The translations under genes were made by a program, and so were the position numbers. Under the pieces are notes generated by a model, which saw nothing but the letters and a program-made list of their open reading frames with translations, ran no database searches and was not told the DNA's origin. A stretch of 64,000 nt of DNA from an uncultured Ectothiorhodospiraceae bacterium. Its GTDB lineage: Bacteria; Pseudomonadota; Gammaproteobacteria; UBA9214. Position 1 is the stretch's first letter; the number at the start of each line of letters is the position of its first letter. Positions 2,863-18,983 of this stretch are shown here, piece by piece. The stretch spans positions 48,989 through 112,988 of the forward strand of contig CAZMAK010000001.1 of NCBI GenBank assembly GCA_964564245.1, in the 5' to 3' direction.

Positions 2863-3204
2863 ATGAAGACTATCGCAACAGTAATTACGGCCGCCACTCT
2901 GGCAATCGCCTCTACCGCCGCTTCCGCCTGGGGCTGGGGTCCTTACGGCAACAACGGTTACAACAACAACGGCTGGGGCGACGGCTGGGGCGACGGCGAC
3001 GTCGACGGCGGCTTTAACATGAACTTCAGCGGGCACGGTAGCGGTCGTGGCTACGGTCGTGGCTACGGTCGTGGCTACAACAGCTACTACGATGGTTATG
3101 CCCCCTACGGCTATGCCCCCTACGGCTACGCCCCTTACGGCTATGCCCCGGCTCCCGCTCCGGTCGCCCCGGCTGCCCCGGCTACCGACACGACGACCAG
3201 GTAA
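2863..3204 (+). CDS. secreted Gly/Tyr-rich tandem-repeat protein, sulfur-globule-envelope-protein-like
   Basis: Signal peptide [22 protein letters not shown]. Mature part is low-complexity: (GYGR)x3, (YAPYG)x4, GWGDG repeats, Pro/Ala tail. Has RBS, AT-rich promoter and intrinsic terminator. Size and composition match Sgp proteins of purple sulfur bacteria. Functional call is an inference. Confidence 0.55.
3043..3078 (+). repeat. 3 x 12-nt tandem repeat (ggtcgtggctac) encoding (GRGY)3
   Basis: Read directly in the sequence, in frame with the sgp-like ORF. Confidence 0.85.
3097..3150 (+). repeat. 3.5 x 15-nt tandem repeat (tatgccccctacggc) encoding (YAPYG)n
   Basis: Read directly in the sequence, with minor third-position variation. 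Confidence 0.85.
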
Positions 3205-3695: not shown

Positions 3696-4547
3696 TCAGC
3701 AGGACTCCATACGAGTATACCCCGTCATATCCTTTGCAATGCAGATTATGTCCGTGATTACACCGTTCTCATCCTTGATCGCGGTACGGGAAAACAGGAT
3801 CGGCACCCGGCGCTGGTCCTTGGCGATAAAGCTTGCCTCGATGCTGCTGATGGTACCGGTCCGGATCAGCGCCTCCAGCCAGGTACCCATGAATGCATTG
3901 GCCCGCTCGGCCTCTTCCTCTTCGAACACGTCACCGATCGCCATGCCCAGGAGCTCGCTCTCCGGGTAATCCAGCAGGTGGCAGGTGCTCGGATTGACGG
4001 CGGTGATTTTTCCTACGGGGTCAAGCACCAGCAACGCCTCGCCCATGTTGCTGATGATCTTTTCCAGGTAGGTACGCGCCTCGCGCAGCTCACGGGTCCG
4101 CTCCTCGACCAGCGCCTCGAGCCGCGTGTTGAGTTCGCGCTCCTTCTCGATCAGCCGCAGGTAGGTGCTGATCTTGTTGATGAGCTGGTTGTCGTCGATC
4201 GGCTTCAGCAGGTAGTCGGCGGCACCGACTTCATAGCCCTTCTGCTGGAATTCATCGGTCTTGTAGGCCGCGGTAAGAAAGATGATCGGGATATCCCGGG
4301 TTTTCTGGCGTACCTTGAGCATGGAGGCCGTCTGGAAGCCATCCATCTCCGGCATCTGTACATCCAGCACGATCAGGTCGATGCGGGGATTGTGCAGCGC
4401 GATGTCCAGTGCGGCCTGCCCGGAATTCGCCTCCAGCACCTCGACGTCCATGTAGCGGTTGATCAGCGCCCGCAGTGTAAACAGGTTGTTCTCGATATCA
4501 TCGACGATCAGGATCCGAAAACCGGCGTAACGTTTCCTGTCTCCCAT
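3696..4547 (-). CDS. response regulator, receiver plus PAS domain
   Basis: ILIVDD...DLIVLDVQMPEMDG...IIFLTA receiver motifs. C-terminal PAS-like region. Stop/start overlap with the upstream kinase. Confidence 0.8.
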   Translation of the reverse strand: MGDRKRYAGFRILIVDDIENNLFTLRALINRYMDVEVLEANSGQAALDIALHNPRIDLIVLDVQMPEMDGFQTASMLKVRQKTRDIPIIFLTAAYKTDEFQQKGYEVGAADYLLKPIDDNQLINKISTYLRLIEKERELNTRLEALVEERTRELREARTYLEKIISNMGEALLVLDPVGKITAVNPSTCHLLDYPESELLGMAIGDVFEEEEAERANAFMGTWLEALIRTGTISSIEASFIAKDQRRVPILFSRTAIKDENGVITDIICIAKDMTGYTRMESC

Positions 4548-6898
4548 CAGATTTCCCCGCTGCTGTTGCCGGTGCCGAGATAGCGGTCCAGCAGTGATTT
4601 CAGTTCTGTTGTGTCAAGCGGCTTGATGACGCAGTCGTTGGCGCCGGATTCCCTGCACATGCGCAGATCCCTTTCGTCTCCCACGGCGGTCAGTGCGATG
4701 ATCGGCAGATTCTGCAGCTGCGGCTGCCCGCGGATACGCCGGATGGTTTCGTAGCCATCCATGCCGGGCATCATTATATCCATAAACACCAGGCTGAATT
4801 CACCGTCGGTGGACAGTGTTTCCAGCGCCTCCGGGCCATCGCCGGCGGCCATGACCTGCAGGTTCCAGCCCTCCAGCAACGGCGTCAGGGCCAGCAGGTT
4901 ACGCACATCATCGTCGACCAGCAATACCCGTGCCGCGCCGTAATCGGCCGCGGGAATCGCCTGTTCCGCCGGCTTGCCGGGACGGACCGCCGGGAGCGGC
5001 CCGGCCGGCATGTCATTCGTATCGGCGGGCATCTCGGCAGGCAGGTACAGGGTGAAACTCGATCCGGTACCGGGTGTGCTCTCTGCGCGGATGTCACCGC
5101 CGAGCAACCAGGCCAGTTCACGGCTGATCGTCAGCCCCAGCCCGGTGCCGCCAAAGCGCCGGCTGGTCGAGCCGTCCGCCTGCTTGAAGGCCTCGAACAC
5201 CAGGTCGAGCTTGTCCGGGGCGATGCCGATCCCGGTATCCGTGACCCGGATACACACCGGGTAACTGATGCCACCCGCCGATTCCTCGCCCAGCAGCTCG
5301 AAACGGATGCCGCCATGGCTGGTGAACTTGACCGCATTCGACAGAAAATTGATGAGGATCTGGCGGATTTTCTCGCCATCGCTGATGACCGTCTCCGGGG
5401 CCGCGGGATCCACCGTGAGTTGCAGGGTCAGCCGCTTTTCATCCAGTTGCGGCCGCATCAGGTCCTGCACATGATCCAGCAAGCTGCGCAACTGCACCGG
5501 CTCCCTGACCAGGGTCATCTGCCGGGCCTCCACGCGGGACAGGTCCAGGATATTGTCGATGAGCGCCTTCAGGTCGGTACCGGCGTCATGGATGACCCGC
5601 GCCTGGCGGACCTTGTCCTCCGGCAGATTTCCTTCCGCGAGCATCTTGGAAAGCAGCAGGATGGAATTCAGCGGGGTGCGTAACTCGTGACTGACGTTGG
5701 CCAGGAATTCCGACTTGTAGCGATTCGATTCCTCGAGCTCGGCGGCGTAGTCATGCAGGGCACGGGTGTTGGCTGCGTGGGTTGCGGCCAGCCGCGTCAG
5801 GTTCTGTCCCAGTTCCTGCAATTCCCGCGGCTGGGACCAGGCGAACACCACGCCCTCGTCCCGCTCCAGCACCCGGGCGATCCGGTCGGTCAGTTCCTGT
5901 CCCAGACGCTCGATCCTGACCGCGATCAGCCGGGCCACCACGAACACCACCACCAGCAGGCCGACCACGATCAGCACGACACGCAGTTCCACCGCACGCT
6001 GCAGGGTGGCCAGTGGCGACGCGTCCACGCTGCGCCCGACCCAGAGCGTGCCGTAGTCCTGCGTATAGAACAGGGGCACCCATAACACCTGCTGGTTGCC
6101 GTATTCCCACAGGCCCAGTTCCCCCTTGCTGAACAGCTGCTGCAGACCCTGGAAGTCATCGAATGCGGAACTGCGCCGGGTCTCACCGTTCGCCGAGGGC
6201 AGGTACTGGCCGTCTCCGAGCACCCAGTAATTGCCCCGGTAGGCACTGGCCAGCCCGCCCAGGTCGAGATACACGATGACCGTGCCGCGCGGCTCGGGCA
6301 TCTCGCCCGATTCCGTGGGCATGGCCGGTATCATGACCGGGCTGATCAGGCTCATCTGCATGAACCGGTTTGGCGCGGTCACGCTGGCACCGCGGTCAAA
6401 CATGATCGGCCCGTTCATGACGGCGCCCGGACGCAGGGTCTTGCTGGCCTCGAGCAGTTCCGGGTTGATGGCCGCGTGCTTTTTCTTCCGGACCTCCATG
6501 CGCCCCGTGCTCTTGTTGCGATCCAGCCAGAACTCCGGGCTCCCGTCGGTCCTGAGAAACAGGATCTGCGTTACGTCCAGCTGGTCACTCAACACCTGGT
6601 TCACCCAGTTCACGTACGCTTTCCGGGAAGCATCGAGTTCCTGCTGATTCTGTTTCGACGTGGTGGTGCGCAACAACCCGGGCTCAGGCATCTTGGCAAG
6701 CAGTCTTGCCGTCTCGTGACGCCGCGCAAGGTGCTGGTCCAGGTCGCTGAACTCGGCGCGCAGGTTCTGCAGGTGTGCCTTGTGATACAGCAATTCGATC
6801 TTGTCAAAGATCATCGGTACATTGATCACGAATGAAACCAGCAGCGGTACCATGCTGAACAGGATCAGGTACAGGGAAATCCGGGTACGCAGCTTCAT
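4547..6898 (-). CDS. hybrid sensor histidine kinase (periplasmic sensor, TM, HisKA, HATPase, C-terminal receiver)
   Basis: H-box SHELRTPLNS. HATPase G-boxes DTGIGI and GGTGLGL. C-terminal VLLVDDD...MDIMMPGMDG receiver. Confidence 0.85.
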   Translation of the reverse strand: MKLRTRISLYLILFSMVPLLVSFVINVPMIFDKIELLYHKAHLQNLRAEFSDLDQHLARRHETARLLAKMPEPGLLRTTTSKQNQQELDASRKAYVNWVNQVLSDQLDVTQILFLRTDGSPEFWLDRNKSTGRMEVRKKKHAAINPELLEASKTLRPGAVMNGPIMFDRGASVTAPNRFMQMSLISPVMIPAMPTESGEMPEPRGTVIVYLDLGGLASAYRGNYWVLGDGQYLPSANGETRRSSAFDDFQGLQQLFSKGELGLWEYGNQQVLWVPLFYTQDYGTLWVGRSVDASPLATLQRAVELRVVLIVVGLLVVVFVVARLIAVRIERLGQELTDRIARVLERDEGVVFAWSQPRELQELGQNLTRLAATHAANTRALHDYAAELEESNRYKSEFLANVSHELRTPLNSILLLSKMLAEGNLPEDKVRQARVIHDAGTDLKALIDNILDLSRVEARQMTLVREPVQLRSLLDHVQDLMRPQLDEKRLTLQLTVDPAAPETVISDGEKIRQILINFLSNAVKFTSHGGIRFELLGEESAGGISYPVCIRVTDTGIGIAPDKLDLVFEAFKQADGSTSRRFGGTGLGLTISRELAWLLGGDIRAESTPGTGSSFTLYLPAEMPADTNDMPAGPLPAVRPGKPAEQAIPAADYGAARVLLVDDDVRNLLALTPLLEGWNLQVMAAGDGPEALETLSTDGEFSLVFMDIMMPGMDGYETIRRIRGQPQLQNLPIIALTAVGDERDLRMCRESGANDCVIKPLDTTELKSLLDRYLGTGNSSGEI

Positions 6899-7900: not shown

Positions 7901-9307
7901 CTAGTACAGTACCCCGCTGTCCGCATCTTTCCCCGGGGCCGCCGTCCTGCTCCGTGTATCGCCCAGCAGACTCTTCAGCGAGTCCTCGATGTAACCGTGA
8001 TTGTTCAGCTCATGGTCGATTTCCCGGGGCCGCTTCTCGAGCTGCTCGGCCGCCGCGGCGACCTTCGGTGCATTTCCGCCGTCCAGCGGGACCTTGTCAT
8101 TATCGATCAGGTAGGGTGTCACCAGCACGATCAGCTCCGAGTTGTCGCTCTTGTGCAGGTCGTTCGAAAACAGCCTGCCGAGCACCGGAATATCGCCAAG
8201 CACCGGCACGCCTTCGCGGTTGCTGTTGTCATTGCGGGTGATCAGGCCGCCGATGAACACCGTCTGCCCGCTTTCAACCAGCATGGAAGTGGTAACCTCC
8301 GCCGTCGTCTGGTTGAGGACGTCCCCGCCGCTGACCTCGGGGTGTATGTTCAGGAAAATCCGCCCCTCCCCGTCCACGGACGGCTTGACCTTCATGATGA
8401 CACCCACTTCCTGGAACTGGACCGAGGTGGTGGTGACGTTGTCGATGGTGGTGGTGACGTTATAACCGAGTCGTTTGCCGATGATGGTTTCCGCCTCCTG
8501 GTCTTCCAGTGCCAGCAGCTTCGGCGTGGACAGGGTGCGGGTGCGGCCGCGCGTACGCAGGCTGTCCAGGAAGGCCTGTACGTTGGGGGTGACATAGTTG
8601 AAGTACAGACCGGGTGAACCCGCGTTCCCCAGACCCTGGGTACCGATCGTGGCGTCACCGGAGCGAAACACCCGGGTCCAGTCCAGGCCCCAGGATTCCT
8701 GGTCGGTCAGCGATACCTCCAGTATCTTCGCCTCGATCAGGATCTGGCGCGGCTGGCGGTCCACTGCGCGGAGCATCCGTTCCACGCGGCCGAGGAAGTA
8801 CGGTGTGTCCTCGACGATCAGCAACCGCCGCTCCGGCAGCGTCGTGATCTGTCCGTAACTCGACAGGTGTGACTTGAGGATCCCGGCCACCACCTCGGGG
8901 TCGGAATACTGCACCTTGTAGGTGCGCACCTCGGTCGGTCCGCCCGGATCGGACTTGCCGGCCTGGTCGCGTTCCACGATGAAGTAACTGCCATTGCGGC
9001 GTTCCACACCGTACCCGGCCGAGGAGGCGATCGAACGGATGGCGGCATCGACCTCCACGCCGTACAGGTTGACGGAAACCTTGCCCTTGACGTTTTCGGA
9101 AAGCAGGATGTTCACGCGCGCGGTACGCGACAGCATCTCCATGACCTCCGCGATGCCCACATTGCGCAGGGTCAGCGTGATCTTGCCGTCATGGTAGATA
9201 TCCTCCGGCGCAGCGCCGTGTGCCGGCAGGGCCAGCAACAGCCACACCACCGGCAGCAACAGCGCCGGCGCGAGCCGGGATCTACCATGTTCCGCTTGTC
9301 TTTGCAT
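7901..9307 (-). CDS. type IV pilus/MSHA-type secretin (GspD/PilQ/MshL family)
   Basis: Signal peptide. Secretin C-domain motifs VPVLGDIPVLGRLF and LIVLVTPYL. Start chosen at MQRQAEHG, with GGAGAGG just upstream. The track ORF extends to 9385. Confidence 0.85.
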   Translation of the reverse strand: MQRQAEHGRSRLAPALLLPVVWLLLALPAHGAAPEDIYHDGKITLTLRNVGIAEVMEMLSRTARVNILLSENVKGKVSVNLYGVEVDAAIRSIASSAGYGVERRNGSYFIVERDQAGKSDPGGPTEVRTYKVQYSDPEVVAGILKSHLSSYGQITTLPERRLLIVEDTPYFLGRVERMLRAVDRQPRQILIEAKILEVSLTDQESWGLDWTRVFRSGDATIGTQGLGNAGSPGLYFNYVTPNVQAFLDSLRTRGRTRTLSTPKLLALEDQEAETIIGKRLGYNVTTTIDNVTTTSVQFQEVGVIMKVKPSVDGEGRIFLNIHPEVSGGDVLNQTTAEVTTSMLVESGQTVFIGGLITRNDNSNREGVPVLGDIPVLGRLFSNDLHKSDNSELIVLVTPYLIDNDKVPLDGGNAPKVAAAAEQLEKRPREIDHELNNHGYIEDSLKSLLGDTRSRTAAPGKDADSGVLY

Positions 9308-9701
9308 CCTCTCCGACCCCGGCCAGCGGCCTGACCCTGATTTCGCGTTGTACCCCGTTGTTATCGAGTACCACCCTGTCTTCATTAACGGCCATCAGCC
9401 GGTAACCATTGATTTCCTCTCCGATACCGACGATCTTCCCGCCGATATTCGCCAGTGAGTGCGGCCCGGCCAGCACAACCCCGCGCAGTTCCATGGAATC
9501 GTTACCGCCACCGGACTTGACACCGCCCCCGGCAGCGGCGGTTTGCGGTGGCACAAACGGGTTGATGTGCAGTTTCGTGTCGGGTTCCGACGCAAACCCG
9601 GCAAACGGCGGCAGCCACAGCGCCAGCAGCAACCCCAACGTGCGCCCGGCGGCCTGCCGGAACCGGTCTCCACGGGGCTGTTTCCCGCTGCGCTCAGTCA
9701 T
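9282..9701 (-). CDS. PilP/MshK-like periplasmic pilus assembly protein
   Basis: Signal peptide LGLLLALWLPPFAGFA. C-terminal beta-rich region GVVLAGPHSLANIGGKIVGIGEEINGYRLMAVNEDRVVL. Position between the PilO-like gene and the secretin. Start ATG at 9701 with GGGAGG RBS. Confidence 0.45.
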   Translation of the reverse strand: MTERSGKQPRGDRFRQAAGRTLGLLLALWLPPFAGFASEPDTKLHINPFVPPQTAAAGGGVKSGGGNDSMELRGVVLAGPHSLANIGGKIVGIGEEINGYRLMAVNEDRVVLDNNGVQREIRVRPLAGVGEDAKTSGTW

Positions 9702-10257
9702 CCTGCGCCTCCCGGTAGGAAACGATCGTGAAGGTGGCGACCACCCGCCGTGCCGTGTCGGCCGGCGGCCCCGCGGCAAGTTTGAACTGCTGGACCACCA
9801 CGTAGCCCAGTTCTTCACGCAAGTCCTGCAACCACTGGTACAGATCGAAGTAATCACCCGAAACCCGCACGTTGAACGTCACTTCCTCGAACACCTGCAC
9901 CTTGTCGCCCAGGCCGGGCGTCACGCTCAGCAGCTCGACATGATTGCGCCAGGAAATCTCCTGTAGCCGGCCGATGACGAAGGACTCCATCTGGTTCTTC
10001 GGCAGGTCGACCATATCCCCGTGCAACTGCCGGTTCAGCGTATCGACGCGGTCCTGCAAGCGGCTCATCTCGCCCTGCAGGGAATCGCCCTTGGCGGCCA
10101 CGCCTTCCAGCAGCCTGAGCGTGGCCAGCGATTCGCGGTAGGCCCTGGCCTGCGGCCACACGACGTAGCTCACCAGCGCGATAACCAGCGTCAGTGCCAG
10201 CGCGGACATCAGCAGCACGACGGTACGGGGCGGGACCCTTTGCAGGATGGCTTCCAT
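9694..10257 (-). CDS. PilO/MshJ-like inner-membrane pilus assembly protein
   Basis: Single N-terminal TM, coiled-coil, C-terminal beta domain. Gene order M-N-O-P-secretin. Confidence 0.55.
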   Translation of the reverse strand: MEAILQRVPPRTVVLLMSALALTLVIALVSYVVWPQARAYRESLATLRLLEGVAAKGDSLQGEMSRLQDRVDTLNRQLHGDMVDLPKNQMESFVIGRLQEISWRNHVELLSVTPGLGDKVQVFEEVTFNVRVSGDYFDLYQWLQDLREELGYVVVQQFKLAAGPPADTARRVVATFTIVSYREAQDD

Positions 10258-10907: not shown

Positions 10908-12036
10908 TTTCGATCAGCCCGTTCATGGCCAGACCGGTGGCAATGGCGATCTCGGGGGAAGGCATGGCAACCGTCACCGGCTGCCTGCCGGCCGTCCGGC
11001 AAAACACCTGCAGCGGATTCGGAATGGTCTGGACCTCGAGCCTGATCAGCGAATTCAGCAGCGCGTCCACGCCGCGCCAGCGCGCCAGGCTGCCCAGCAG
11101 GTAGATACGGCCGATCGGTTCACCGCGTGTCTGTGAGGCGGCGTAGATCAGGGTGCGATTGATCTCCTCGGCGAGCTTGAGAAAATCCGGCTTGAGGATT
11201 TCCTGCAGTGTCACGGAAGTCTCGCGGTCGATCGTGCCGTCTTCACCGGCCCCGCCCTTTACCTGCGGGTCGAGGCTGTTGCCGGCAACCAGCCGCCGCA
11301 CCGGCTCGGTCTCCATGTCCAGCGCTTTGGCCACATGATCCAGCAAGCGGTTCTCGCCGAACCGGACCTCCTGGTCGAACAGCAGGCGCGCACCGGAAAT
11401 CACCGTCATGAAGCTCGACTCACGGCCGAAATTGATCGCCAGCACGTTCTGGTGCTCGCCGCGTTCCCCCATTGCACTGACCAGGCGGCGAATGGCGGAC
11501 GGCCCGATTTCCAGGTGTTGCGTCTCGAGTCCGCTCTTGCGCAGCAGCTCGAGATAGCGGATGACGCGTTCACGCGGGGCGACTGCGACGATCGCCAGGC
11601 GCTCCTCCATACCCTGTTCCGGACGCACCGGCAGATAATCGATCACGTAGTCACTCAGTTCGCCATCGAGCCGCTCCTCCAGAAGCTTCAGGATCGAGAC
11701 GTCGTCCGAGCCGCCCTCGGTAACCGTGTAGGACAGCGGCATGATTTTCACGTCGGAAGACGGCAGTGTCGTGACGATGGCCCGTCCGCGGAACGCATCC
11801 TGCCGCAGTGCCTCGCGCACCAGCGACCGGAACCGTTTCGGCTCGGCCAGCAGATCGTCCAGCGTCCCGGTATAGGGCAGCGAGGCGCTGGCGTGCAGGG
11901 AGATCTCGCCGCTGTGGTCCACGGCAAGCTGCACCAGGTGCAGGGCATGCAGTGCGCACTCCACGCCGATGAACCCGGTACGCCGCGCATTGGCGCCCGG
12001 GCGAACACGGTGCAGGACTTCTGCCAGCGCAGCCAT
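10900..12036 (-). CDS. PilM/MshI-like actin-fold cytoplasmic pilus assembly protein
   Basis: About 380 aa, the size and first position of pilM in pilMNOPQ-type operons. No TM. Confidence 0.6.
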   Translation of the reverse strand: MAALAEVLHRVRPGANARRTGFIGVECALHALHLVQLAVDHSGEISLHASASLPYTGTLDDLLAEPKRFRSLVREALRQDAFRGRAIVTTLPSSDVKIMPLSYTVTEGGSDDVSILKLLEERLDGELSDYVIDYLPVRPEQGMEERLAIVAVAPRERVIRYLELLRKSGLETQHLEIGPSAIRRLVSAMGERGEHQNVLAINFGRESSFMTVISGARLLFDQEVRFGENRLLDHVAKALDMETEPVRRLVAGNSLDPQVKGGAGEDGTIDRETSVTLQEILKPDFLKLAEEINRTLIYAASQTRGEPIGRIYLLGSLARWRGVDALLNSLIRLEVQTIPNPLQVFCRTAGRQPVTVAMPSPEIAIATGLAMNGLIENG

Positions 12037-12184
12037 TGCGGTATCTCTCCCCTTACCCCCGCGATTTCGCGTAGGTTACTGTCTTGAAAAAGGAATCCAG
12101 TACACCGTGATCGGCCGGGCAGGTGCGATCTTGAGGCAGTGTTGCGGGGGCATAAAGGGGGTTGCCCCGGGAAACGGCGACCGG

Positions 12185-13372
12185 TCAGGCCCGGCCCGAG
12201 CCCTGTGCGCGCGGCGGGTCAGCCAGCACCCGGCTGATGATATTGGCGGTCTGGTGGTGCCCGTCCTTGCGGGCCTTGGCGGTGTACAGGGCCTCATCGG
12301 CCTCGTGGTAGATATGTTCCTGCGAGTACTCGATGCCTGCCGGTACACTGGCCAGCCCCACGCTCAGCCAGATGGTCATGCCATTCTGCGGATTCGCTGC
12401 GCGCAGGGCGTCCTGGATCTGTTTCAGACAGGCGATGATCAGCTGCTCCGGCTGCTCATTGATAAACAGCAGCGCGAACTCGTCACCCCCCATGCGGATC
12501 AGGTAACCGTCATCCGCCAGCGCCCGGGTAAAGTGCAGGCTGATACTGCGCAGCACCTCGTCACCGAAATCATGGCCGCAGCAGTCATTGACGGGTTTGA
12601 AGTTATCCACGTCCAGATAGGCAAAATGGAAGGTCCTGTGCTCCGCGTGCCACGCCGCGGTTTTCTCCTCGAAGGTGTTTTTCAGGAACCGCCGGTTCCA
12701 GGCGCCGGTGAGCGGGTCCTTGTTGGACAGGTGCAACATCTTGCGATTCGCCTGCTCCAGCTCGTAACGGGTCTGCACTTCGGACTTGCGGATGGTCATG
12801 TTGCGCGTGACCAGCAGCAGGCTGATCATGCCGGCGCCGACCATGATGAACTGCAACGACCAGAGCGTGGCCATATCGAACCGTTCATAGGACGCCAGGG
12901 TGGACACGGTGAAGGTCAGGTAGATCAGGCCGGTCACCAGCAGCGCCTCGCGCAGCCCCCACGGCACCAGCGGGGCGACCATGAACAGCAGCGCCACACT
13001 GCCCAGCGTCACCTGGTTGAAGTCGCCGGTCTTGTGCGCCAGCAGCACGAAGGCCGTGCCACTGATCATCAGCAGGCTGGTCCCGAGCATGTACAGGGAG
13101 CTGGTATCGCGTGCGACACGTGCCGACACCATGATGTGCGTGGACAGCAGGGCAAGCAGGCCGCTGGTATAGACGGTGAAGTGCGAATACCCGAGGGCAT
13201 AGAACAGCAACGCGCTGGCACTGTAGATGCACAGCAGCACCACGCCCAGCATGACCAGGCCATGGCGGGTTTCCTCCAGTGTCACGCTACGAGCGTACAG
13301 CGCCACGTCATCCGAGTCGTAACTCGATGAAGACCATGACTTTTTCAGCATTTTTGACAGGGCGTTATACAC
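12185..13372 (-). CDS. membrane-anchored diguanylate cyclase (multi-TM N-domain plus GGDEF)
   Basis: RMGGDEFALL GGDEF motif with upstream NKDPLTGAWNRR. Six predicted TM helices N-terminal. Confidence 0.85.
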   Translation of the reverse strand: MYNALSKMLKKSWSSSSYDSDDVALYARSVTLEETRHGLVMLGVVLLCIYSASALLFYALGYSHFTVYTSGLLALLSTHIMVSARVARDTSSLYMLGTSLLMISGTAFVLLAHKTGDFNQVTLGSVALLFMVAPLVPWGLREALLVTGLIYLTFTVSTLASYERFDMATLWSLQFIMVGAGMISLLLVTRNMTIRKSEVQTRYELEQANRKMLHLSNKDPLTGAWNRRFLKNTFEEKTAAWHAEHRTFHFAYLDVDNFKPVNDCCGHDFGDEVLRSISLHFTRALADDGYLIRMGGDEFALLFINEQPEQLIIACLKQIQDALRAANPQNGMTIWLSVGLASVPAGIEYSQEHIYHEADEALYTAKARKDGHHQTANIISRVLADPPRAQGSGRA

Positions 13373-13524
13373 ACCACCGTTATCGGCAGTACGCCGTTAA
13401 ACCATAGCGGGAGAAGCGTGACGCCGAATCCACCTGATACGCAGACAAAACAGATACATGGCCGCCCAAGAGCCGGGCCTTCAGGATCGTTATCCGGAAC
13501 CGCAGGGGAGCGTTTCACGGACCT

Positions 13525-14427
13525 TCAGACCCCGATCGCGAAGCGCGAACCCGGATGCATGCCCTTGGAGCCGGGAAAGATGAGGTACATGACCCCATCG
13601 AGCTGGCATTCGACCGCTTCCCGGATGGCCGCGCACCGCGCGGCTGTCAGGCCGGTGGCCAGCCAGGCAAACTGGGGCACCCGTGACACGAAGGCGTTGT
13701 ACTCGTCCTCATCGGCCTGGCCGACATCGCTTAACAGCCCGGCAAGATGCACAATCGAGGCCTCCAGGGAATAGTCAGCCGATTGCCCGGGGGTATTGTG
13801 CAACTTTACCGGTTCCCACAGGCCTTTCGGCAGTCCCCACTGCTGCAGCAGGTCCCCGCCCAGCCGGGCATAATCAAAGCCGATCACCGCACCTTCCACC
13901 TCGTGCAGCGGGATACCTTCCGTCCGGGCACGCAGCAGGGCCGCCCGGGATTCGTCCGGAATCGACTGGTACATGACCAGGTGCCCGATATCGCGCAGTA
14001 GACCGGCGACGAACAGCCGCTCGCTATCCAGCATGTTGCAACTGGCCGCCAGCAGGCGTGCAGCCGCGGCGCAATATACGCTGCGTGTCCAGAAGGCATG
14101 CATATCCATCACCTCGATGGAAATGCCGGCAAAGGTCTGCGCCACCGAGGTGGCCAGTACCAGGTCGTGCACCTGCTGCGAACCGAGCATGCCGACAGCG
14201 CGCGAAATGGTTTCAACCTTCACGGAAAGGCCGAAATAGGGACTGTTGACCTGGCGCAGCAGGCGTGTGGCGATGGCCGGATCCGTACTGATGACTTCCT
14301 CGATGTCGGCGACAGCATAGTCGGGATCATCCAGCACCGCCTTCAGGCGTAGATAAACGGCCGGCAGCGTCAGCAACTGTGCCTTTGTAGTGACTTTTTC
14401 CCAGAGGCTATTGGTCGGCTGATCCAT
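13525..14427 (-). CDS. HDOD-domain signalling protein
   Basis: HDOD hallmark segments LPAVYLRLKAVLDDPDYAVADIEEVISTDPAIATRLLRQVNSPYFGL and LLRDIGHLVM. Confidence 0.8.
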   Translation of the reverse strand: MDQPTNSLWEKVTTKAQLLTLPAVYLRLKAVLDDPDYAVADIEEVISTDPAIATRLLRQVNSPYFGLSVKVETISRAVGMLGSQQVHDLVLATSVAQTFAGISIEVMDMHAFWTRSVYCAAAARLLAASCNMLDSERLFVAGLLRDIGHLVMYQSIPDESRAALLRARTEGIPLHEVEGAVIGFDYARLGGDLLQQWGLPKGLWEPVKLHNTPGQSADYSLEASIVHLAGLLSDVGQADEDEYNAFVSRVPQFAWLATGLTAARCAAIREAVECQLDGVMYLIFPGSKGMHPGSRFAIGV

Positions 14428-14488
14428 CAGTCGCCCTCCTTTCGTCTCTTATCGGCCACACAAGCGCAGTCCTGACCAGCTTGTTACC

Positions 14489-15419
14489 GGGTCGGACCTG
14501 TTTATCAGACTGATCCTCAAGCAATAAGTGTTCATATTTGGCTAAGGTATGGACCCTAAGCGTCGTTTCCAGGCTAAAAACGCAGTTTCAAGGAGGACAT
14601 GGATGCCTCGTGCACATCGCTATTTCCTGCCAGGCCATATCTGGCACATCACGCATCGCTGCCACAAGCGGCAGTTCCTGCTCAAGTTTGCGAAGGACCG
14701 CAGGGCCTGGGTGTACTGGCTCTATCAGGCACGCAAACGCTTTAACCTGTGCGTACTGAACTATGTTGTGACATCAAACCATATCCATTTGCTGGTTAAG
14801 GACACGGGGCGCGGAGAGATCTCGCGCAGTATGCAGTTGATTGCCGGGCGTGTGGCGCAACAGTTCAACCGACGCAAGGCACGCAAAGGCGCCTACTGGG
14901 AGGATCGCTATCATGCAACCGCCGTGCAGTCGGACGGACATCTGGCAAGGTGCATGGTCTACATCGACCTGAACATGGTCCGGGCCGGGGTGGTGGCACA
15001 TCCAGCGGACTGGGTGCATGCGGGTTACAACGAAATCCAGTCGTTGCCGAAGCGCTACCGCTGCGTCGATGTGGCAGCACTTTCCGCATTACTGGATTTT
15101 ACCGATGCGGATAGCTTGCGCGACGGACTGCGCACGCGAGTGGAACTGGCGCTTGCGAAGGGTAATCTGGAGCGCGACCCAGCGTGGACCATGAGTATCG
15201 CCGTGGGACAGCGCGACTACCTGGACGCGATCGGGCTCGAACTGAAGCTCAGTCATCCGGGGCGGAGGATTGAGGGAGACGCAGATCTATTATGCTTGCG
15301 GGAGGAACCGAGCAGTTATTCGAGCTAAAAAGTGCCAGAAAAGTATGGTCCAAGCTGAGAAATCAGTCGCTCAACCGCATTATGTGATTACTTATCAGGA
15401 TATTGGGAAGGTCCGACCC
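14489..15419 (+). mobile_element. REPtron-like unit: RAYT gene bracketed by inverted REP-like repeats
   Basis: Perfect 11-bp inverted repeat GGGTCGGACCT (14489-14499) / AGGTCCGACCC (15409-15419) flanks the transposase gene. The same core CAGGTCCGAC recurs in the 21-bp repeats at 23726-23747, 23875-23895 and 36807-36827. Confidence 0.5.
14603..15328 (+). CDS. REP-associated tyrosine transposase (RAYT; IS200/IS605-like Y1 HUH transposase)
   Basis: HUH motif NHIHLLV and catalytic-Tyr region GAYWEDRYH. AAGGAGG RBS 6 nt before ATG 14603. The track ORF starts further upstream at 14549. Confidence 0.8.
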   Translation: MPRAHRYFLPGHIWHITHRCHKRQFLLKFAKDRRAWVYWLYQARKRFNLCVLNYVVTSNHIHLLVKDTGRGEISRSMQLIAGRVAQQFNRRKARKGAYWEDRYHATAVQSDGHLARCMVYIDLNMVRAGVVAHPADWVHAGYNEIQSLPKRYRCVDVAALSALLDFTDADSLRDGLRTRVELALAKGNLERDPAWTMSIAVGQRDYLDAIGLELKLSHPGRRIEGDADLLCLREEPSSYSS

Positions 15420-15476
15420 CGTAATGCGCTCCGGGCTTTCTGCAGCAGGATGCGGCCAGCCCTTCCGGCGTTGCGC

Positions 15477-18400
15477 TCACGGCGTGCACTGGATCTGGAT
15501 GTTGTCGAACCAGACTTCATCAGCCCACCCCAGCGTGGAAGAGCTGAGCAGCCGGATGGCGGTCGTACCCGAAATATAGGCACTGATATCCTGGCTGAAC
15601 GACCGGTAGCCGTAATCCGTACCCCAGCCCTGGAAGCGGGTGAGTTCGGTCCACGGCCCCGCCGACCCGTTGCTGGACACCTGCAGGGCCACATAATCGC
15701 TGCTGGTATCCAGCTGGTTGCGGCGATACTGCAATGACAACGTAGCCGTGGTCGCACCCGCCAGGTTGGCCTCGCGCAGCACACCCTCACCACCCCCGTC
15801 GTTATCCCGCACGCGCAGCTGGTTGGTCCCCGGCGTGGCGCTGGCGGTCGAATCGGCCCCGACCCATTCATCACCCGACTGCGCACCGTCTGCCTCGTTG
15901 ACCTCCTGCCAGTCGCCGGTCCAGCTAAGTGTGCCGTCATTGCCGGAATAGTTGTGTGCATTGAAGTCGTCGCGGTAGGTGCCACTGCACCCTCCGCCAC
16001 CGCCGCCACCGCCACCGCCGCCACCGCCACCGGTCGGTGGCACCTGGTCGGCATCCACCAGCACGATACCGCGCGGACGGCTCAGGCCGGAGGAGACGAT
16101 GGTCTCCACGTTGCCGCCGTCGGGATCGGAGCGCTGCACCCGCTGGTTGAGCGCATCGACCCAGTAGATCCGGTCGTGGTCCGCATCGTAGGCGATGTCC
16201 TGTGGCGCGTTCAGCCCGGTCACGATGGTTTCCATGTTGCTGCCGTCGAGGTTGGCGCGCCTGATCCAGTCGTTGCTGGCCCCGCCGGTCCAGTACATCT
16301 TGCCGTTTACCAGGTCCAGCGCACTGCCGACGGCGCCGGTCGGCCCGGTCGTGAGCGTGGTCACGGAGCTGCCATTGACTTTCATGCTCGATACCCGGCC
16401 ACTGCCGAACTCGGTCAGGTACATCTTGCCTGCGGACTTGTCCAGGCTGAGATAGGACGGCCGGTTCAGGGTATTGTTGACGAGCGTGGCGCCGCTGCCA
16501 TCGAGGTTGGCGCTCATGACCCGGCTGGAACCGTTGTCGTGGGTCCAGTACATCTTTCCGCCGGCCACATCCAGCTTGATGTCGAAGGTCACGTAGGCAT
16601 CATTATAGACGACCTCGCTGTTGCTGCCGTCCAGGTTCGCGCGCCGGATCTGGTAATTGTTGGTCCAGTAGAGCTTGCCGTTGACGGTGTCGATATCCAG
16701 CCCGGTCGGGCGGTCCAGCCCGGTCAGTACATCCTCCACATCGCTGCCGTCCTCGTCCGAGCGCTGGATCTTGTTGGCGACATCATCGGTCCAGTACACC
16801 TTCTTCGGCGGGACGGCCGGCACTCCGTCCATGCCCCACTGGATGGCACGCTGCACCAGCAGGCGGCCGTTGTTGTTGAGGTAGTCCCAGTTGAACTTGC
16901 CGGCCCGCCCGACCGGGACCGAGATGATACGAGCAACTGCATTACCACCGCCGAACATCTGTGCACCGGCTTCGATGGCCGAGAGTCCGGTGGCCCCGTT
17001 CAGACGGCCTAACGCCTGCAGGCCCGGCGCCGGGTTGGCGGTGACGGTCGCACCCTCCATAGCGAGGTTCCCGAGCGGGATCACGCCGAGCGGGAACAGC
17101 GCGGTGATGAACTGGGTGTTATCGGCGATCCCGATACTGTCGGTGACGGTGTAGCTGCCAGGATCGGCCACCCCGAGATTATCGTACTGCTCGGCCGGTT
17201 CGGTGATGACGGCGATGGGCGCCCTTTTCAGCCGGTTGCCAAGCGTGGCATCCGCCACGGTGTTGGAAACGTACACGGCATCGTTAGCCCCCATGGCAGC
17301 ATTCATGGTGGACTGGTCGACTCCATCGTCGATCAGTGTCACCACGTAGCCCCAGGACTCGAACAGGGTTTTGCGGGTGATATCCGCGGCGGCGGGAGCG
17401 GCCGCGTTCCCGACCACCAGCAGCAGGCGACCGCTGCCCTGTGGCAACTGGCAGACCACCCCGCATTCGCAGGCAAAGGTCAGCGTGAGTTGCGGGTGCT
17501 GCGCCGCAGCGGGGCTGTCGCTGCTGGTGAAGTCGATATCGCCGGCATTGCCACCGCCCTCGCGTAACAGGAAACCAAAGTTGGGGGCACCATCCAGCCA
17601 GTCCTGGACCTGTGCAGTGACATCCCACTCGTACCAGCCAGGCGCCATGGTGGGCAGGGTTACGCTGTCAATGACCGCGGCATCATAGTCACCGCCGGGG
17701 TTATTCCAGGCGGTCAACCCATCGTAGCTCTGGTAGGTCACACCCGCACCGGGCGGTGGCACCTGGTTGTCAAAGCTGCCTTCCACCCAGGCATGGGTAA
17801 CCCGGTGCAGATCAAGCCGGCCGTTGGACACACCGGAGCCGCCTTCCAGGTACAGACCCAGGTGGGCATCGGTGATGCGCGCGCCGGGCGGCAATACCTC
17901 CAGCGCAAAGCGCAGCAGCACATTGCGGTCATTCTTGATGTTCAGAATGGAGGAAGCACCGAAATTCGTGTTCTTGTGGGCACCGGCCCAGACAAAGGCA
18001 TCCTGCAGCTCGGCACCCGGCTGCAGGGTCGCCGAACTGACCGGCTGATAGAGCGGAATATCGTTACGAACGATGGTGTAGCTGGCACCACTGTCCAGCG
18101 TACCGGTTGCGGTCACCGCGGCGCGGTTGGACAAATTGCCATCCGTATACCTGACCTCCAGGTATGGCCGGTGACTGGCATCGCTGTCTTCCTTGCTGGC
18201 GAACTCCGTGGTATCCGTGCCGAGCAGCGTGGAAGACACGATAAGTACGCCGTAGTTCGGCTGCGCGCCACTGACCCAGCCCTGCACCAGCGCGGTCAGG
18301 TTGACATCGGCATACTGATCCTGCGGCGTGCCGGCCGGGATGCTGGCGACCGTCGAGGCATCGAAACTGGTACCGATGCTGTTCCAGGTCACCGTGGCCT

Positions 18401-18983
18401 CGTCCCAGGACGCGGTCACGCGGTGCACTGTCACCGGCAAGGTGTGTTTGAACCGGGTGACATACCAGTGCGCCACGGCGGACACGATCGTGGCACTGGC
18501 CGGGATGCCGGCATTCTCGATGTCGAAGCGGTAGTAGGGCCGGTCGTAGTTGCCGCCGAGCAGGTTGCTTTCCAGGCGCAGCGTGCCGTCGCTGCCGTGG
18601 TTGGCGTTGCCGTTGTTCTTGTCGATCCAGGCATCGTCGCTGACCGGCACACTGACGTTCGAGATCGTACTGCCCACCTTGTTGACAGTGATGGTGGTCG
18701 AATAGTGATGGGCGCCGAACGGCACGCTGGACAGACCGGTATAGGGACCGCAACCGGCTGTATCGATCTGCTGCAGGGTATGTTGCAGGCCGGCCCTGGC
18801 GACGTACTCCGCCTGCGTGTGCCCGGCCACGGTGCCGGTGGCATTGAGTTCGACTGCAGAGCCATGATTGATCATGAAGGCGACCACGGCAACCAGTGCG
18901 ATCAGCAGCACCACCGGCAGCAGCACGAAACCACGCCGGTCGTTTGCACAGGCCACACGCCGTGTCGATCTGACTCGACTCAC
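15477..18983 (-). CDS. giant minor-pilin/adhesin fusion: GspK/PilX-like N-terminus, two carbohydrate-binding-like domains, YWTD beta-propeller, Gly14 linker, C-terminal lectin-like domain
   Basis: N-terminal RRGFVLLPVVLLIALVAVVAF is a pseudopilin-type helix lacking Glu5, as in GspK. Two copies of a beta-sandwich module ending W(D/V)E(A/G)T/S..W.N. Six YWTD/YWT(N/H) repeats (YWTDDVANKIQRSD, LYWTNNYQIRRANLDGSN, MYWTHDNGSSRVMSANLDGS and others), as in LDL-receptor class B propellers. Gly14 tract. Stop overlaps the upstream pseudopilin start. Confidence 0.7.
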   Translation of the reverse strand: MSRVRSTRRVACANDRRGFVLLPVVLLIALVAVVAFMINHGSAVELNATGTVAGHTQAEYVARAGLQHTLQQIDTAGCGPYTGLSSVPFGAHHYSTTITVNKVGSTISNVSVPVSDDAWIDKNNGNANHGSDGTLRLESNLLGGNYDRPYYRFDIENAGIPASATIVSAVAHWYVTRFKHTLPVTVHRVTASWDEATVTWNSIGTSFDASTVASIPAGTPQDQYADVNLTALVQGWVSGAQPNYGVLIVSSTLLGTDTTEFASKEDSDASHRPYLEVRYTDGNLSNRAAVTATGTLDSGASYTIVRNDIPLYQPVSSATLQPGAELQDAFVWAGAHKNTNFGASSILNIKNDRNVLLRFALEVLPPGARITDAHLGLYLEGGSGVSNGRLDLHRVTHAWVEGSFDNQVPPPGAGVTYQSYDGLTAWNNPGGDYDAAVIDSVTLPTMAPGWYEWDVTAQVQDWLDGAPNFGFLLREGGGNAGDIDFTSSDSPAAAQHPQLTLTFACECGVVCQLPQGSGRLLLVVGNAAAPAAADITRKTLFESWGYVVTLIDDGVDQSTMNAAMGANDAVYVSNTVADATLGNRLKRAPIAVITEPAEQYDNLGVADPGSYTVTDSIGIADNTQFITALFPLGVIPLGNLAMEGATVTANPAPGLQALGRLNGATGLSAIEAGAQMFGGGNAVARIISVPVGRAGKFNWDYLNNNGRLLVQRAIQWGMDGVPAVPPKKVYWTDDVANKIQRSDEDGSDVEDVLTGLDRPTGLDIDTVNGKLYWTNNYQIRRANLDGSNSEVVYNDAYVTFDIKLDVAGGKMYWTHDNGSSRVMSANLDGSGATLVNNTLNRPSYLSLDKSAGKMYLTEFGSGRVSSMKVNGSSVTTLTTGPTGAVGSALDLVNGKMYWTGGASNDWIRRANLDGSNMETIVTGLNAPQDIAYDADHDRIYWVDALNQRVQRSDPDGGNVETIVSSGLSRPRGIVLVDADQVPPTGGGGGGGGGGGGGGCSGTYRDDFNAHNYSGNDGTLSWTGDWQEVNEADGAQSGDEWVGADSTASATPGTNQLRVRDNDGGGEGVLREANLAGATTATLSLQYRRNQLDTSSDYVALQVSSNGSAGPWTELTRFQGWGTDYGYRSFSQDISAYISGTTAIRLLSSSTLGWADEVWFDNIQIQCTP
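15991..16034 (-). repeat. (GGN)14-15 trinucleotide tract encoding a poly-Gly linker
   Basis: Forward strand reads ccTCCGCCACCGCCGCCACCGCCACCGCCGCCACCGCCACC. Protein has TGGGGGGGGGGGGGGC. Confidence 0.8.

Follow-up and report, generated by a model that had tools for sequence, protein, structure and literature searches.

A probable TIRtron of long residence beside HDOD in an MSHA-like type IV pilus locus of uncultured Gammaproteobacteria

The 931-bp unit at positions 14489-15419 of the window (the whole 64,000-nt stretch of DNA from an uncultured Ectothiorhodospiraceae bacterium that was analysed here) is probably a TIRtron, an IS-like unit with a TIRYT-type Y1 HUH endonuclease/transposase and near-invariant 10-bp ends, which has long been resident in its locus and did not make the surrounding gene order. 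It consists of a 114-nt leader, an intact gene, and a 91-nt trailer (Table 1). Comparison with a clade of uncultured Gammaproteobacteria showed that residence of the unit beside HDOD, in an MSHA-like type IV pilus locus, predates the divergence of these genomes; across dozens of unrelated genomic contexts, unit and ends form a single conserved block. Units of this kind have already been described and are little studied; the copy in the window adds one more example. For the window itself, the result removes a tempting transposon-made explanation of the pilus gene order.

Table 1. Coordinates of the unit, its parts, and the neighbouring features in the window
Feature	Position	Strand	Remark
Hybrid histidine kinase	4547-6898		
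Secretin	7901-9385		Pilus locus
HDOD gene	13525-14427	-	Pfam HDOD, 203 bits
HDOD upstream region, start codon to left end	14428-14488	-	Motif TATCGGCC..GCG..C(T)TGAC
Left end / leader	14489-14602	+	114 nt, 46% GC
Left terminal inverted-repeat core GGGTCGGACC	14489-14498	+	Perfect 11-bp repeat when T14499 is added
-35-like CTGATC	14510-14515	+	In leader
-10-like CATATT	14533-14538	+	In leader
Hairpin CGTTT/AAACG	14564-14568 / 14578-14582	+	In leader
Shine-Dalgarno AAGGAGGA	14590-14597	+	6 nt before ATG 14603
Y1 HUH transposase gene	14603-15328	+	241 aa, intact ORF
Right end / trailer	15329-15419	+	91 nt, 45% GC; conserved GAAAAG...TCCAAGC module
Right terminal inverted-repeat core GGTCCGACCC	15410-15419	+	Perfect 11-bp repeat when A15409 is added
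Outer flank of right end to adhesin stop codon	15420-15476		
CBM96/LDL-B adhesin	15477-18983	-	Beyond right end

The original prediction placed a perfect 11-bp inverted repeat around the gene, and the letters of the window bear this out: GGGTCGGACCT (14489-14499) is the exact reverse complement of AGGTCCGACCC (15409-15419). Extended outward, the repeat is complementary at 15 of 16 positions (14484-14499 and 15409-15424), and extended inward it becomes an imperfect terminal inverted repeat of 26 bp (18/26 matches; left copy to 14514, right copy from 15394), in which both ends display the pattern GGGTCGGACC-N11-CTGAT. The core palindrome has a 1-nt centre. Taken alone, the 11-bp repeat stands hardly above chance locally and points only weakly to an element: by our own estimate about 0.2 perfect 11-bp inverted repeats are expected by chance in 1.3 kb, and the 11-mer with at most one mismatch is found three times in the window against 1.9 expected. 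The comparative evidence from aligned homologous loci, which places the core at fixed offsets, is decisive for reading the repeat as the element end. In about 52 of the 80 homologous loci, which come from several phyla, the core G-GGTCNGACC precedes the ATG by about 114 nt and recurs 85-91 nt past the stop codon; in 52 loci it is at least 90% conserved at its offset, the sequence outside the core is unconserved, and conservation ends exactly at the core motifs. The repeats can thus be taken as the flanks of a real unit, as had been proposed. Just outside the right core, C15420 is 90% conserved. Across the family, ungapped extension of the repeat past the core is weak (-2 at 56%, -3 at 47%), and the additional TTAC/GTAA of the window may therefore be due to chance. 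The TTATCAG noted just inside each repeat is indeed present (14502-14508 and 15392-15398), but its reading as a pair of direct motifs does not stand, since the right copy is the inverted counterpart of the left-end CTGAT; the left-end TTATCAG is part of a local palindrome, ATCAGACTGAT.

The translation start of the transposase is ATG 14603, which aligns with the MPR... of all homologues and is preceded by AAGGAGGA; the alternative ATG 14549 was rejected on these grounds. Both motifs by which the gene had been recognized as an HUH Y1 transposase, NHIHLLV and AYWEDRYH, are present in the ORF. The former contains the HuH motif N59-H60-I-H62 (N59-H60-x-H62 is invariant in the alignment), and the latter requires a correction, as it is the 'W motif' of the family (W99-E-D-R-Y103) and not the site of the catalytic tyrosine; the predicted catalytic residue is Y120, within the invariant YIDLNMVRA. 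Together with a Pfam Y1_Tnp match (41 bits), these motifs show the RAYT/IS200 catalytic fold with its HuH and Tyr motifs. The best fold match of the model was E. coli TnpA-REP (4er8); this fold comparison alone gave a structural relative, and a sequence-profile search of the PDB gave none. The C-terminal ~100 aa are helical in the model and fall outside known families, with no Pfam hit for residues 138-241 at E values up to 10. The gene is under purifying selection, with a pN/pS of about 0.15 (~0.05/0.30) relative to a homolog in a related genome (L007); the L006 transposase was left out of this comparison owing to a frame artefact.

TIRtrons are RAYT-like Y1 genes (TIRYTs) bounded by terminal inverted repeats, not by REPs, with the repeat consensus GGGGWSAS; in some genomes the repeats also occur as solo copies, dimers, or clusters (Di Nocera, De Gregorio & Rocco 2013, BMC Genomics 14:522; PMC3733652). 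BLASTP comparison with the sequences printed in Additional file 5 of that paper (PMC3733652) gave E values from 1e-28 to 1e-19 against the published TIRYTs (best match 39%, E 1e-28; protein core 33-39% identical; similarity ending at residue 137-145), versus 20-23% identity to classical RAYTs (E 9e-11 and 0.003; E. coli RAYT, 20%). On this measure the protein is nearer to the published TIRYTs than to the REP-associated RAYTs. The organization is also alike: repeats, not REP hairpins, flank the gene in the window at a near-constant distance, and some genomes contain solo, dimeric, or clustered copies of the repeat. The right end read inward, GGGGTCGG, agrees with seven of the eight positions of GGGGWSAS, position 7 being G instead of A, and motif variants with GGTCAGACC are present in relatives. 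Differences from the published TIRYTs are found in the protein, which has YIDLNM in place of YIELNP, 'HAGY' in place of 'WSSY', and a C-terminal region of ~100 aa unrelated to theirs. The cross-phylum 10-bp palindromic core, the tandem duplications at the junctions, and the passenger-like gene linkage are absent from the 2013 description.

The unit is likewise close to TnpA-Y1 subclass 2.1, which is characterized by NH[VYF]H, W[EQ], and YIELNP or Y[IV]HLNP with a median length of 238 aa (Quentin et al. 2018, PMC6006769, Table 1) and corresponds to RAYT Group 1 (Bertels et al. 2017, PMC5581495). The 241-aa protein of the window possesses NHIH and WE, has no REP nearby, and belongs to a family of low copy number, with duplicates now and then, and of wide, patchy distribution (Proteobacteria, Desulfobacterota, and others). 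Its Y motif, YIDLNM, ends in NM and not NP and is thus a near but inexact match, and the C-terminal HTH-like domain of the subclass and of RAYT Group 1 (DnaA_C / HTH_23 / HTH_28-like) is undetectable in it.

The unit had originally been called REPtron-like. REPs are imperfect palindromes of 20-40 nt, which form hairpins headed by a 5' GT[AG]G. A REPtron reportedly combines a RAYT (TnpA-REP) with REP/BIME or REPIN sequences (Nunvar 2010; Bertels & Rainey 2011; Ton-Hoang 2012; structure 4ER8). A classical REPtron, in which a domesticated single-copy RAYT spreads a genome-wide REP/REPIN family, would agree with the fold being closest to E. coli TnpA-REP, with one vertically persistent gene lying between inverted copies of a short sequence, with its synteny and purifying selection in relatives, and with the solo or clustered end copies of some relatives (for example L045). 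Even the score against the NCBIfam RAYT profile (NF047646, REP_Tyr_transpos equivalog) is a near miss, 74.7 bits against a cutoff of 80. The ends themselves, however, are not REP-like: folding of both as single-stranded DNA gave no structure beyond shuffled sequences (z 0.2-0.4), and they carry no GT[AG]G head. A census of the 64-kb window found no repeat family, no further copy of the end sequence, and no 12-mer present more than three times, and the conserved block is the entire 930-bp unit, not short repeats alone. A genuine GTAG-REP family does exist in the relatives, separate from and unrelated to these ends. We therefore consider the REPtron reading improbable; because the protein resembles TIRYTs more than RAYTs and the ends are not REP-like, TIRtron is the correct label. 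A literature search with the literal end sequence matched only unrelated primers.

IS200/IS605 elements encode a TnpA of ~130-150 aa with Y...Q and have no terminal inverted repeats but subterminal hairpins at both ends, on one strand. It is very improbable that the unit is an ordinary member of this group in which subterminal hairpins are the functional ends and the inverted repeat is incidental. The unit does share the HUH/Y1 catalytic fold with IS608 and ISDra2, and, family-wide, similar T4/A4 hairpins have a common orientation, one ahead of the start codon and the other at the stop codon, both of which are retained in an internal-deletion derivative described below; structure in the 5'-UTR beside the ribosome-binding site also recalls IS200. 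Support for these direct subterminal hairpins as a family-wide feature is moderate, and conservation runs ~65-75 nt past them to the invariant cores. The clade of the window has lost the stop-codon hairpin (in the window, CTAAAAAG-TGCC-AGAAAAG cannot form it) and yet retains the ends. In addition, the protein is 100 aa longer than an IS200/IS605 TnpA, has Y...N(M/P) rather than Y...Q, and scores 20.7 bits against a cutoff of 55 with the NCBIfam IS200 profile (NF033573); the unit has terminal inverted repeats, no tnpB, and no high-copy identical copies.

The leader hairpin was tested as a named structure, since RNAalifold on the full leader alignment displayed only trivial pairing of the core. 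In that test, 75.5% of the cells pair, compared to 68.5% in shuffled alignments (reached in 0 of 500), with a covariation score of 0.232 against 0.145. TTGA is conserved in 36-39 of the 42 leader sequences. A sigma-70 promoter and terminator scan of 13300-15600 gave no hit and a fixed-column promoter test was passed by only 4 of the 42 sequences, so that the leader promoter is something we infer rather than observe; the window's own match to it is poor. Because of this poor match and the loss of the stop-codon hairpin in the clade, the copy in the window may be immobile or domesticated. The ortholog of the trailer in L007 is the distal right end (RE'; 87 nt, 90%), and both have the outer flank CCGTAATGC.

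Annotation of the neighbouring genes confirmed that the unit lies between the adhesin block and a block of HDOD, GGDEF (diguanylate cyclase, DGC), PilM/N/O, and secretin genes. From this position it had been proposed that an insertion or a REP-mediated rearrangement explains the split gene order. The idea that a recent event of this kind split an ancestral pilus operon gains some appeal from the exact placement of the unit between the two blocks, from its variable position among relatives, and from one genome (L006) in which pilMNOP and the DGC gene are missing beside the left end. The synteny comparison nevertheless makes it the least probable of the readings weighed here. The closest relative by neighbouring genes (L084) has the same adhesin-HDOD-DGC-PilMNO-secretin order and no transposase gene, retaining only a degenerate solo right end; this is essentially the finding, identical order with no RAYT at the site, that the original prediction had named as speaking against it. 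All other relatives do likewise, the unit standing on one or the other side of HDOD, and the order holds in every relative of 55-78% protein identity. Divergence of the transposase has kept pace with that of the locus (dS 0.35-1.1), and the association of unit and locus is therefore old, not recent. The order of the pilus locus is ancestral and not transposon-made; element-linked rearrangement is real and is restricted to the HDOD/transposase/toxin-antitoxin block.

Within that block, the unit stands on either side of HDOD depending on the genome, with decayed ends left at the opposite site, and solo or decayed ends are found at both HDOD-flanking sites among the relatives; the DGC-HDOD spacer of the window contains no recognizable remnant. 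In L007, a brnTA toxin-antitoxin pair lies between duplicated right ends, and one MAG has two diverged copies of the unit (L001 and L009). Non-autonomous derivatives and solo ends clearly exist. A 266-bp derivative in L053 joins left-end nt 1-97 to the last 169 nt, is 97% identical to its master copy, and lies 2.5 kb from it; units of ~260 bp bounded by the terminal repeats occur in L045 and L023, and 20 kb of L045 contains seven extra cores. An end pair 2.1 kb apart in L059 was rejected as a cargo carrier, as the enclosed ORF is a DDE-type transposase. Family-wide, a short tandem duplication abuts 30% of the element ends, compared to 3-5% in controls. A plasmid collection gave three matches only, distant and limited to the core. 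The family comprises at least 7,854 protein clusters at E <= 1e-20; TIRtrons belong to a very large family, yet are scarcely named in the literature.

A putative mechanism can be put forward conditionally. The enzyme would make single-strand nicks at the outer repeat edges by means of Y120 and the HuH metal site. On one strand, the complementary repeats could form a stem of 10-11 bp, amounting to a REP-like hairpin with the gene between its arms, and this pairing would juxtapose the two cleavage sites for excision or copying. Movement would be rare and mostly local. Transcription might start from a weak promoter within the left end, and the 5'-UTR hairpin beside the ribosome-binding site might temper translation. 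The invariant 10-bp palindromic core, the direct subterminal hairpins, and the internal-deletion derivative provide testable handles, as do the end-abutting tandem duplications, the long vertical residence with local hops, and the neighbouring gene of common history; these features bear on how transposase lineages shift between 'selfish' and 'resident' lifestyles.

A domesticated, immobile nuclease with a host function, for instance modulation of HDOD/diguanylate-cyclase expression and hence of c-di-GMP control of the pilus, has to be weighed as well, and we hold it to be improbable to about the same degree as the REPtron. The long synteny beside HDOD under strong purifying selection and the loss of the right-end hairpin in this clade would suit it, and the left end is located 61 bp upstream of HDOD (in other genomes, upstream of DGC), next to the promoter-like motif TATCGGCC..GCG..C(T)TGAC, which every relative conserves with or without the element beside it. 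In L094, a distant HDOD gene (49% identity) in an unrelated context even has a canonical TIRYT divergently upstream. L084, however, lost the gene and kept the locus, and most family members are located away from HDOD. This protein class has no known regulatory mechanism, and the population of the window (L081, L082, and the window itself) gave no evidence of inversion or switching.

The HDOD gene and the TIRtron have a history in common. HDOD divergence is flat (pN 0.09-0.17, pS 0.26-0.49), in distinction from the two-level divergence of PilM, DGC, and the secretin, and a 1935-bp block is 88% identical between L002 and L007, with flanks at 69%. Codon bias was rejected as the cause of the low synonymous divergence, because the GC3 of HDOD (0.75) is lower, not higher, than that of its neighbours (0.78-0.85). 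Judged by these substitution patterns, HDOD and the unit show a shallower history than both flanks, distinct from that of the surrounding pilus genes. We tentatively raise the rather unlikely possibility that the TIRtron and HDOD, in some genomes with brnT/brnA, form an end-bounded cassette (LE...RE') exchanged between lineages, and that the tandem duplications are footprints of end processing, for instance a staggered nick at the repeat edge and its repair, unlike the chemistry of IS200/IS605 and REP/RAYT. Such a cassette would be the first RAYT-lineage Y1 element with passenger genes.

In the population of the window, no transposition was seen, L081, L082, and the window having the unit at one site. 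L082, a metagenome contig 99.5-99.9% identical to the window, displays an 89-bp insertion/deletion polymorphism at ~15427-15433, just beyond the right end, and its extra DNA brings two degenerate copies of CCGTAATG.

The two 11-nt repeats bracketing the transposase gene (see the table) are exact reverse complements of each other, as the original prediction had stated, and the repeat finder extended them outward to 16 nt with complementarity at 15 of the 16 positions. By our own estimate, chance alone would place about 0.2 inverted repeats with 11 perfect base pairs in 1.3 kb, and the 11-mer with up to one mismatch occurs three times in the window, versus 1.9 expected. Taken on its own, the repeat is weak evidence. 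No folding of the ends was detected beyond that expected by chance from shuffled sequences. When one genome per species was scanned, relatives of the protein turned out to be encoded in 252 stretches, from which 80 loci were retained. None was an identical copy; the top ones displayed 90% identity, all from uncultured Gammaproteobacteria, and relatives of 50–60% identity belonged to Desulfobacterota, Nitrospirota, and Alpha- and Betaproteobacteria. About 52 of the 80 retained loci carry a palindromic core, GGTCNGACC, about 114 nt 5' of the start codon and again 85–91 nt 3' of the stop codon. Conservation reaches at least 90% per position over G-GGTCGGACC at the left end and GGTCCGACC-C at the right end, and the DNA immediately beyond both cores is not conserved. 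The fixed offsets together with the unconserved DNA outside point to a mobile unit of about 930 bp bounded by the cores, and this comparison shows that the inverted repeat represents the true element ends.

The family consensus at either end is GGTCGGACC-N5-AAC-N4-TGA, and both ends in the window run GGGTCGGACC-N11-CTGAT (matches at 18 of 26 positions). TTATCAG had been described as a direct motif just inside each repeat. Both copies are present, but their role as direct motifs was not retained: the right copy pairs, inverted, with CTGAT of the left end, and the left copy falls within a local palindrome, ATCAGACTGAT.

Coordinates of the features, in the window unless a homologous locus is named
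Feature	Position	Strand or remark
Left repeat GGGTCGGACCT	14489-14499	sequence
Right repeat AGGTCCGACCC	15409-15419	sequence
Extended repeat, 16 nt	14484-14499 / 15409-15424	
TTATCAG	14502-14508 and 15392-15398	
Leader hairpin CGTTT/AAACG	14564-14568 / 14578-14582	
Start codon ATG	14603	
Adhesin, 1168 aa, CBM96/LDL-receptor-B	15477-18983	opposite to unit
HDOD	13525-14427	opposite to unit; followed by GGDEF cyclase and PilM/N/O
Secretin	7901-9385	
HDOD and GGDEF upstream regions	14428-14488; 13373-13524	
GTAG-REP copies, L001	~4050-4250	
GTAG-REP copies, L007	~8640-8760 and 11530-11600	

A single intact ORF lies between the repeats. Its true start codon is 6 nt after AAGGAGGA and lines up with the invariant MPR... 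of every homologue, and the NHIHLLV and AYWEDRYH peptides noted earlier are found in it. The protein matched Pfam Y1_Tnp (41 bits) and scored 74.7 bits with the NCBIfam RAYT equivalog, under the cutoff of 80, and 20.7 bits with the NCBIfam IS200 model (cutoff 55). Aligning 29 homologues showed N59-H60-x-H62, W99-E-D-R-Y103, and Y120-I-D-L-N-M-V-R-A among the invariant residues; AYWEDRYH is accordingly the "W motif", and Y120 is the catalytic tyrosine. The last ~100 residues, which are helical, gave no Pfam match, and a PDB sequence-profile search with the protein found nothing. At least 7,854 protein clusters were related at E ≤ 1e-20; one is labelled "RayT", and all the others bear just the annotation "transposase" or "putative transposase".

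Di Nocera et al. 2013 (PMC3733652) described RAYT-like genes with terminal inverted repeats at a nearly constant distance and no REPs, naming the unit TIRtron and the protein TIRYT; GGGGWSAS is common to many such repeats, and solo, dimeric, or grouped repeat copies occur in some genomes. Most TIRYTs are TnpA-Y1 subclass 2.1 (Quentin et al. 2018, PMC6006769), with a median of 238 aa, NHVH/NH[YF]H, W[EQ], and YIELNP motifs, and no REP (PMC6006769), corresponding to Bertels' RAYT Group 1 (PMC5581495). Compared with the sequences printed in the supplement of Di Nocera 2013 (PMC3733652), the window protein is nearest to TIRYTs (sml_1152, 39% identity, E 1e-28; hch_1378, 33%), whereas it is distant from classical RAYTs (20–23%). 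The similarity to TIRYTs spans only residues 1–145; the C-terminal domain is thus different from the published ones. The window sequence GGGGTCGG agrees with GGGGWSAS at seven of eight positions. In contrast to REPtrons, the ends neither fold nor have GTAG, and the 64-kb window contains no repeat family: the only further core copy is one chance match, and no 12-mer occurs more than three times. These features together led us to abandon the REPtron-like assignment and to file the unit as a TIRtron, a somewhat divergent member of an already described class. A classical GTAG-headed REP family (GTAGGGTGCGTTTTACGCACC / GGTGCACAAAGTGCACCCTAC), separate from the unit ends, is intergenic in close relatives; no copies of it were found in the window.

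Within the family, locus L053 carries a 266-bp derivative 2.5 kb from the full unit, in which left-end nt 1–97 (97%) are joined to the final 169 nt (98%), and L045 and L023 have ~260-bp units between the same cores. Two diverged copies exist within one MAG in L001 and L009, and tandemly duplicated ends are frequent (L001, L008, L011, and L007). The comparisons thus reveal an intact Y1 enzyme under selection, conserved ends, gene-less derivatives, and local position changes. Y120 and the HuH site presumably introduce a nick into one strand at each repeat's outer border. The two cores complement each other on a single strand and could therefore pair into a 10–11-bp stem, comparable to a REP hairpin interrupted by the gene. 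Such pairing would bring the two cleavage sites together. Movement would be rare and chiefly local.

The interest of the unit is raised by duplications abutting its ends and by a history shared with HDOD. Beside either end, the host DNA frequently consists of a tandemly duplicated 6–13-nt unit (up to one mismatch) including the terminal 1–3 nt of the element (L003, L012, L039, L040, L041, L074, and others), and larger duplications copy the entire core. Such duplications abut 31 of 103 ends, compared with 5/103 for the same flank shifted 40 nt outward (Fisher p = 2e-6), 3/103 just inside the core, and 3.0% of random windows (binomial p = 2e-22). In L082, from the window's own organism, an 89-bp insertion 8–14 bp outside the right end (window ~15427–15433) adds the flank unit CCGTAATG twice more in degenerate form. 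The duplications suggest that some reaction takes place at the repeat edge, possibly fork stalling or staggered nicking followed by repair. The two papers that deal with the TIRtron class make no mention of them.

The flanking genes all lie on the strand opposite to the unit, with N-methyl pilins, a T2SSF platform protein, and a T2SSE/MshEN ATPase ahead of the adhesin; they confirm its place between the adhesin/pilin operon and the HDOD/DGC/PilMNO-secretin block. Relatives chosen through the transposase exhibited two arrangements. The first, PilM-DGC-HDOD-[unit]-adhesin, is that of the window and of L001, L002, and L007; decayed ends persist in its DGC-HDOD spacer (GGGTCGACC in L001 and L007; GGACCGACCC in L002, adjoining the HDOD stop codon). 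The second, DGC-[unit]-HDOD-adhesin (L003, L005, and L008; also L087 and L083), has a solo right end between HDOD and adhesin, precisely at the position of the window's right end. The latter is orthologous to the distal right end of L007 (87 nt, 90%, common outer flank CCGTAATGC). In L007 (10872–11421), the proximal and distal right ends enclose a brnT/brnA toxin-antitoxin pair, which is also found beside the solo right end of L005 (~11900–12500); the window, the simplest version, has neither the pair nor a remnant. A similar pair is probably present in L001 (6300–7100).

A second scan, seeded with HDOD, recovered L081 and L082 from the window's own organism (99.5–99.9% identity), both carrying the unit at the site it occupies in the window. 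Among its other finds was L084, the closest by neighbours (adhesin 64%, DGC 78%, and PilM 75%), in which the genes follow the identical order, the transposase gene is absent, and all that is left is a degenerate right-end remnant. A relative of this kind is what the original prediction had named as evidence against itself. The order is thus ancestral, and the earlier suggestion that insertion or rearrangement caused the split is not supported: the unit does not explain the gene order. In L006, pilM-pilP and the GGDEF gene are missing (8828–10000) and the left end is ~370 bp away from a secretin gene that is truncated, suggesting that a deletion took place next to the element.

PilM, DGC, and secretin display two divergence levels (pN 0.11–0.18 in the close group; 0.25–0.33 versus L002, L003, and L008), and HDOD divergence is flat across all pairs (pN 0.09–0.17, pS 0.26–0.49). 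The transposase groups by arrangement, not by neighbour phylogeny (L007 versus L002, pS 0.16; PilM pS 0.73). L002 and L007 align continuously over 1,935 bp at 88% identity, beginning at the HDOD stop codon and reaching the right-end core, with flanks at 69%. The most economical reading is that an HDOD-unit block was exchanged among these lineages, either because it was transferred and replaced the resident allele or because an end-bounded cassette moved; the data also fit a stage at which HDOD had a copy on each side, with reciprocal loss afterwards. Codon bias was rejected as the cause of the low synonymous divergence of HDOD, whose GC3 (0.75) is lower, not higher, than that of the other host genes (0.78–0.85) and intermediate toward the transposase (0.69). 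The HDOD and GGDEF upstream regions and the matching spacers of L001–L008 share TATCGGCC-N7-GCG-N4-6-C(T)TGAY, and wherever present, an element or remnant left end lies 10–15 nt past the TATCGGCC motif, often as GACA|GGGTC. The motif may represent a site for a common regulator, reflect a target preference, or be flanking DNA that was carried along.

In the leader, TTGA at positions 23–26 is conserved in 36–39 of 42 sequences, with an A/T-rich −10-like hexamer 16–17 nt downstream. The window version, CTGATC-17-CATATT, is a poor match, and a promoter scan of 13300–15600 found none. A family hairpin 10–25 nt ahead of the ribosome-binding site is supported by alignment (pairing in 75.5% of cells versus 68.5% shuffled, 0/500; covariation score 0.232 versus 0.145; slid controls 40–57%). 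Support is moderate for a putative similar hairpin of the same orientation around the stop codon in the wider family, followed by TCTAAG (69.6% versus 63.3%, 1/500). The two recall the subterminal hairpins that IS200/IS605 carries in direct orientation. With AAAA as its 5' arm, the stop-codon hairpin cannot form in the window's clade, and this loss may be tied to reduced mobility.

A second HDOD-TIRYT adjacency was observed in L094 (252–944 and 1274–2137), where a canonical TIRYT (230 aa, NHVH/WE/YIELNP, 54% identity to the published hch_1378) lies divergently upstream of a distant HDOD (49% identity), in a nuo-like, unrelated context. At 3042–3078, the window also contains three tandem repeats of a 12-bp unit (CGGTCGTGGCTA/C).
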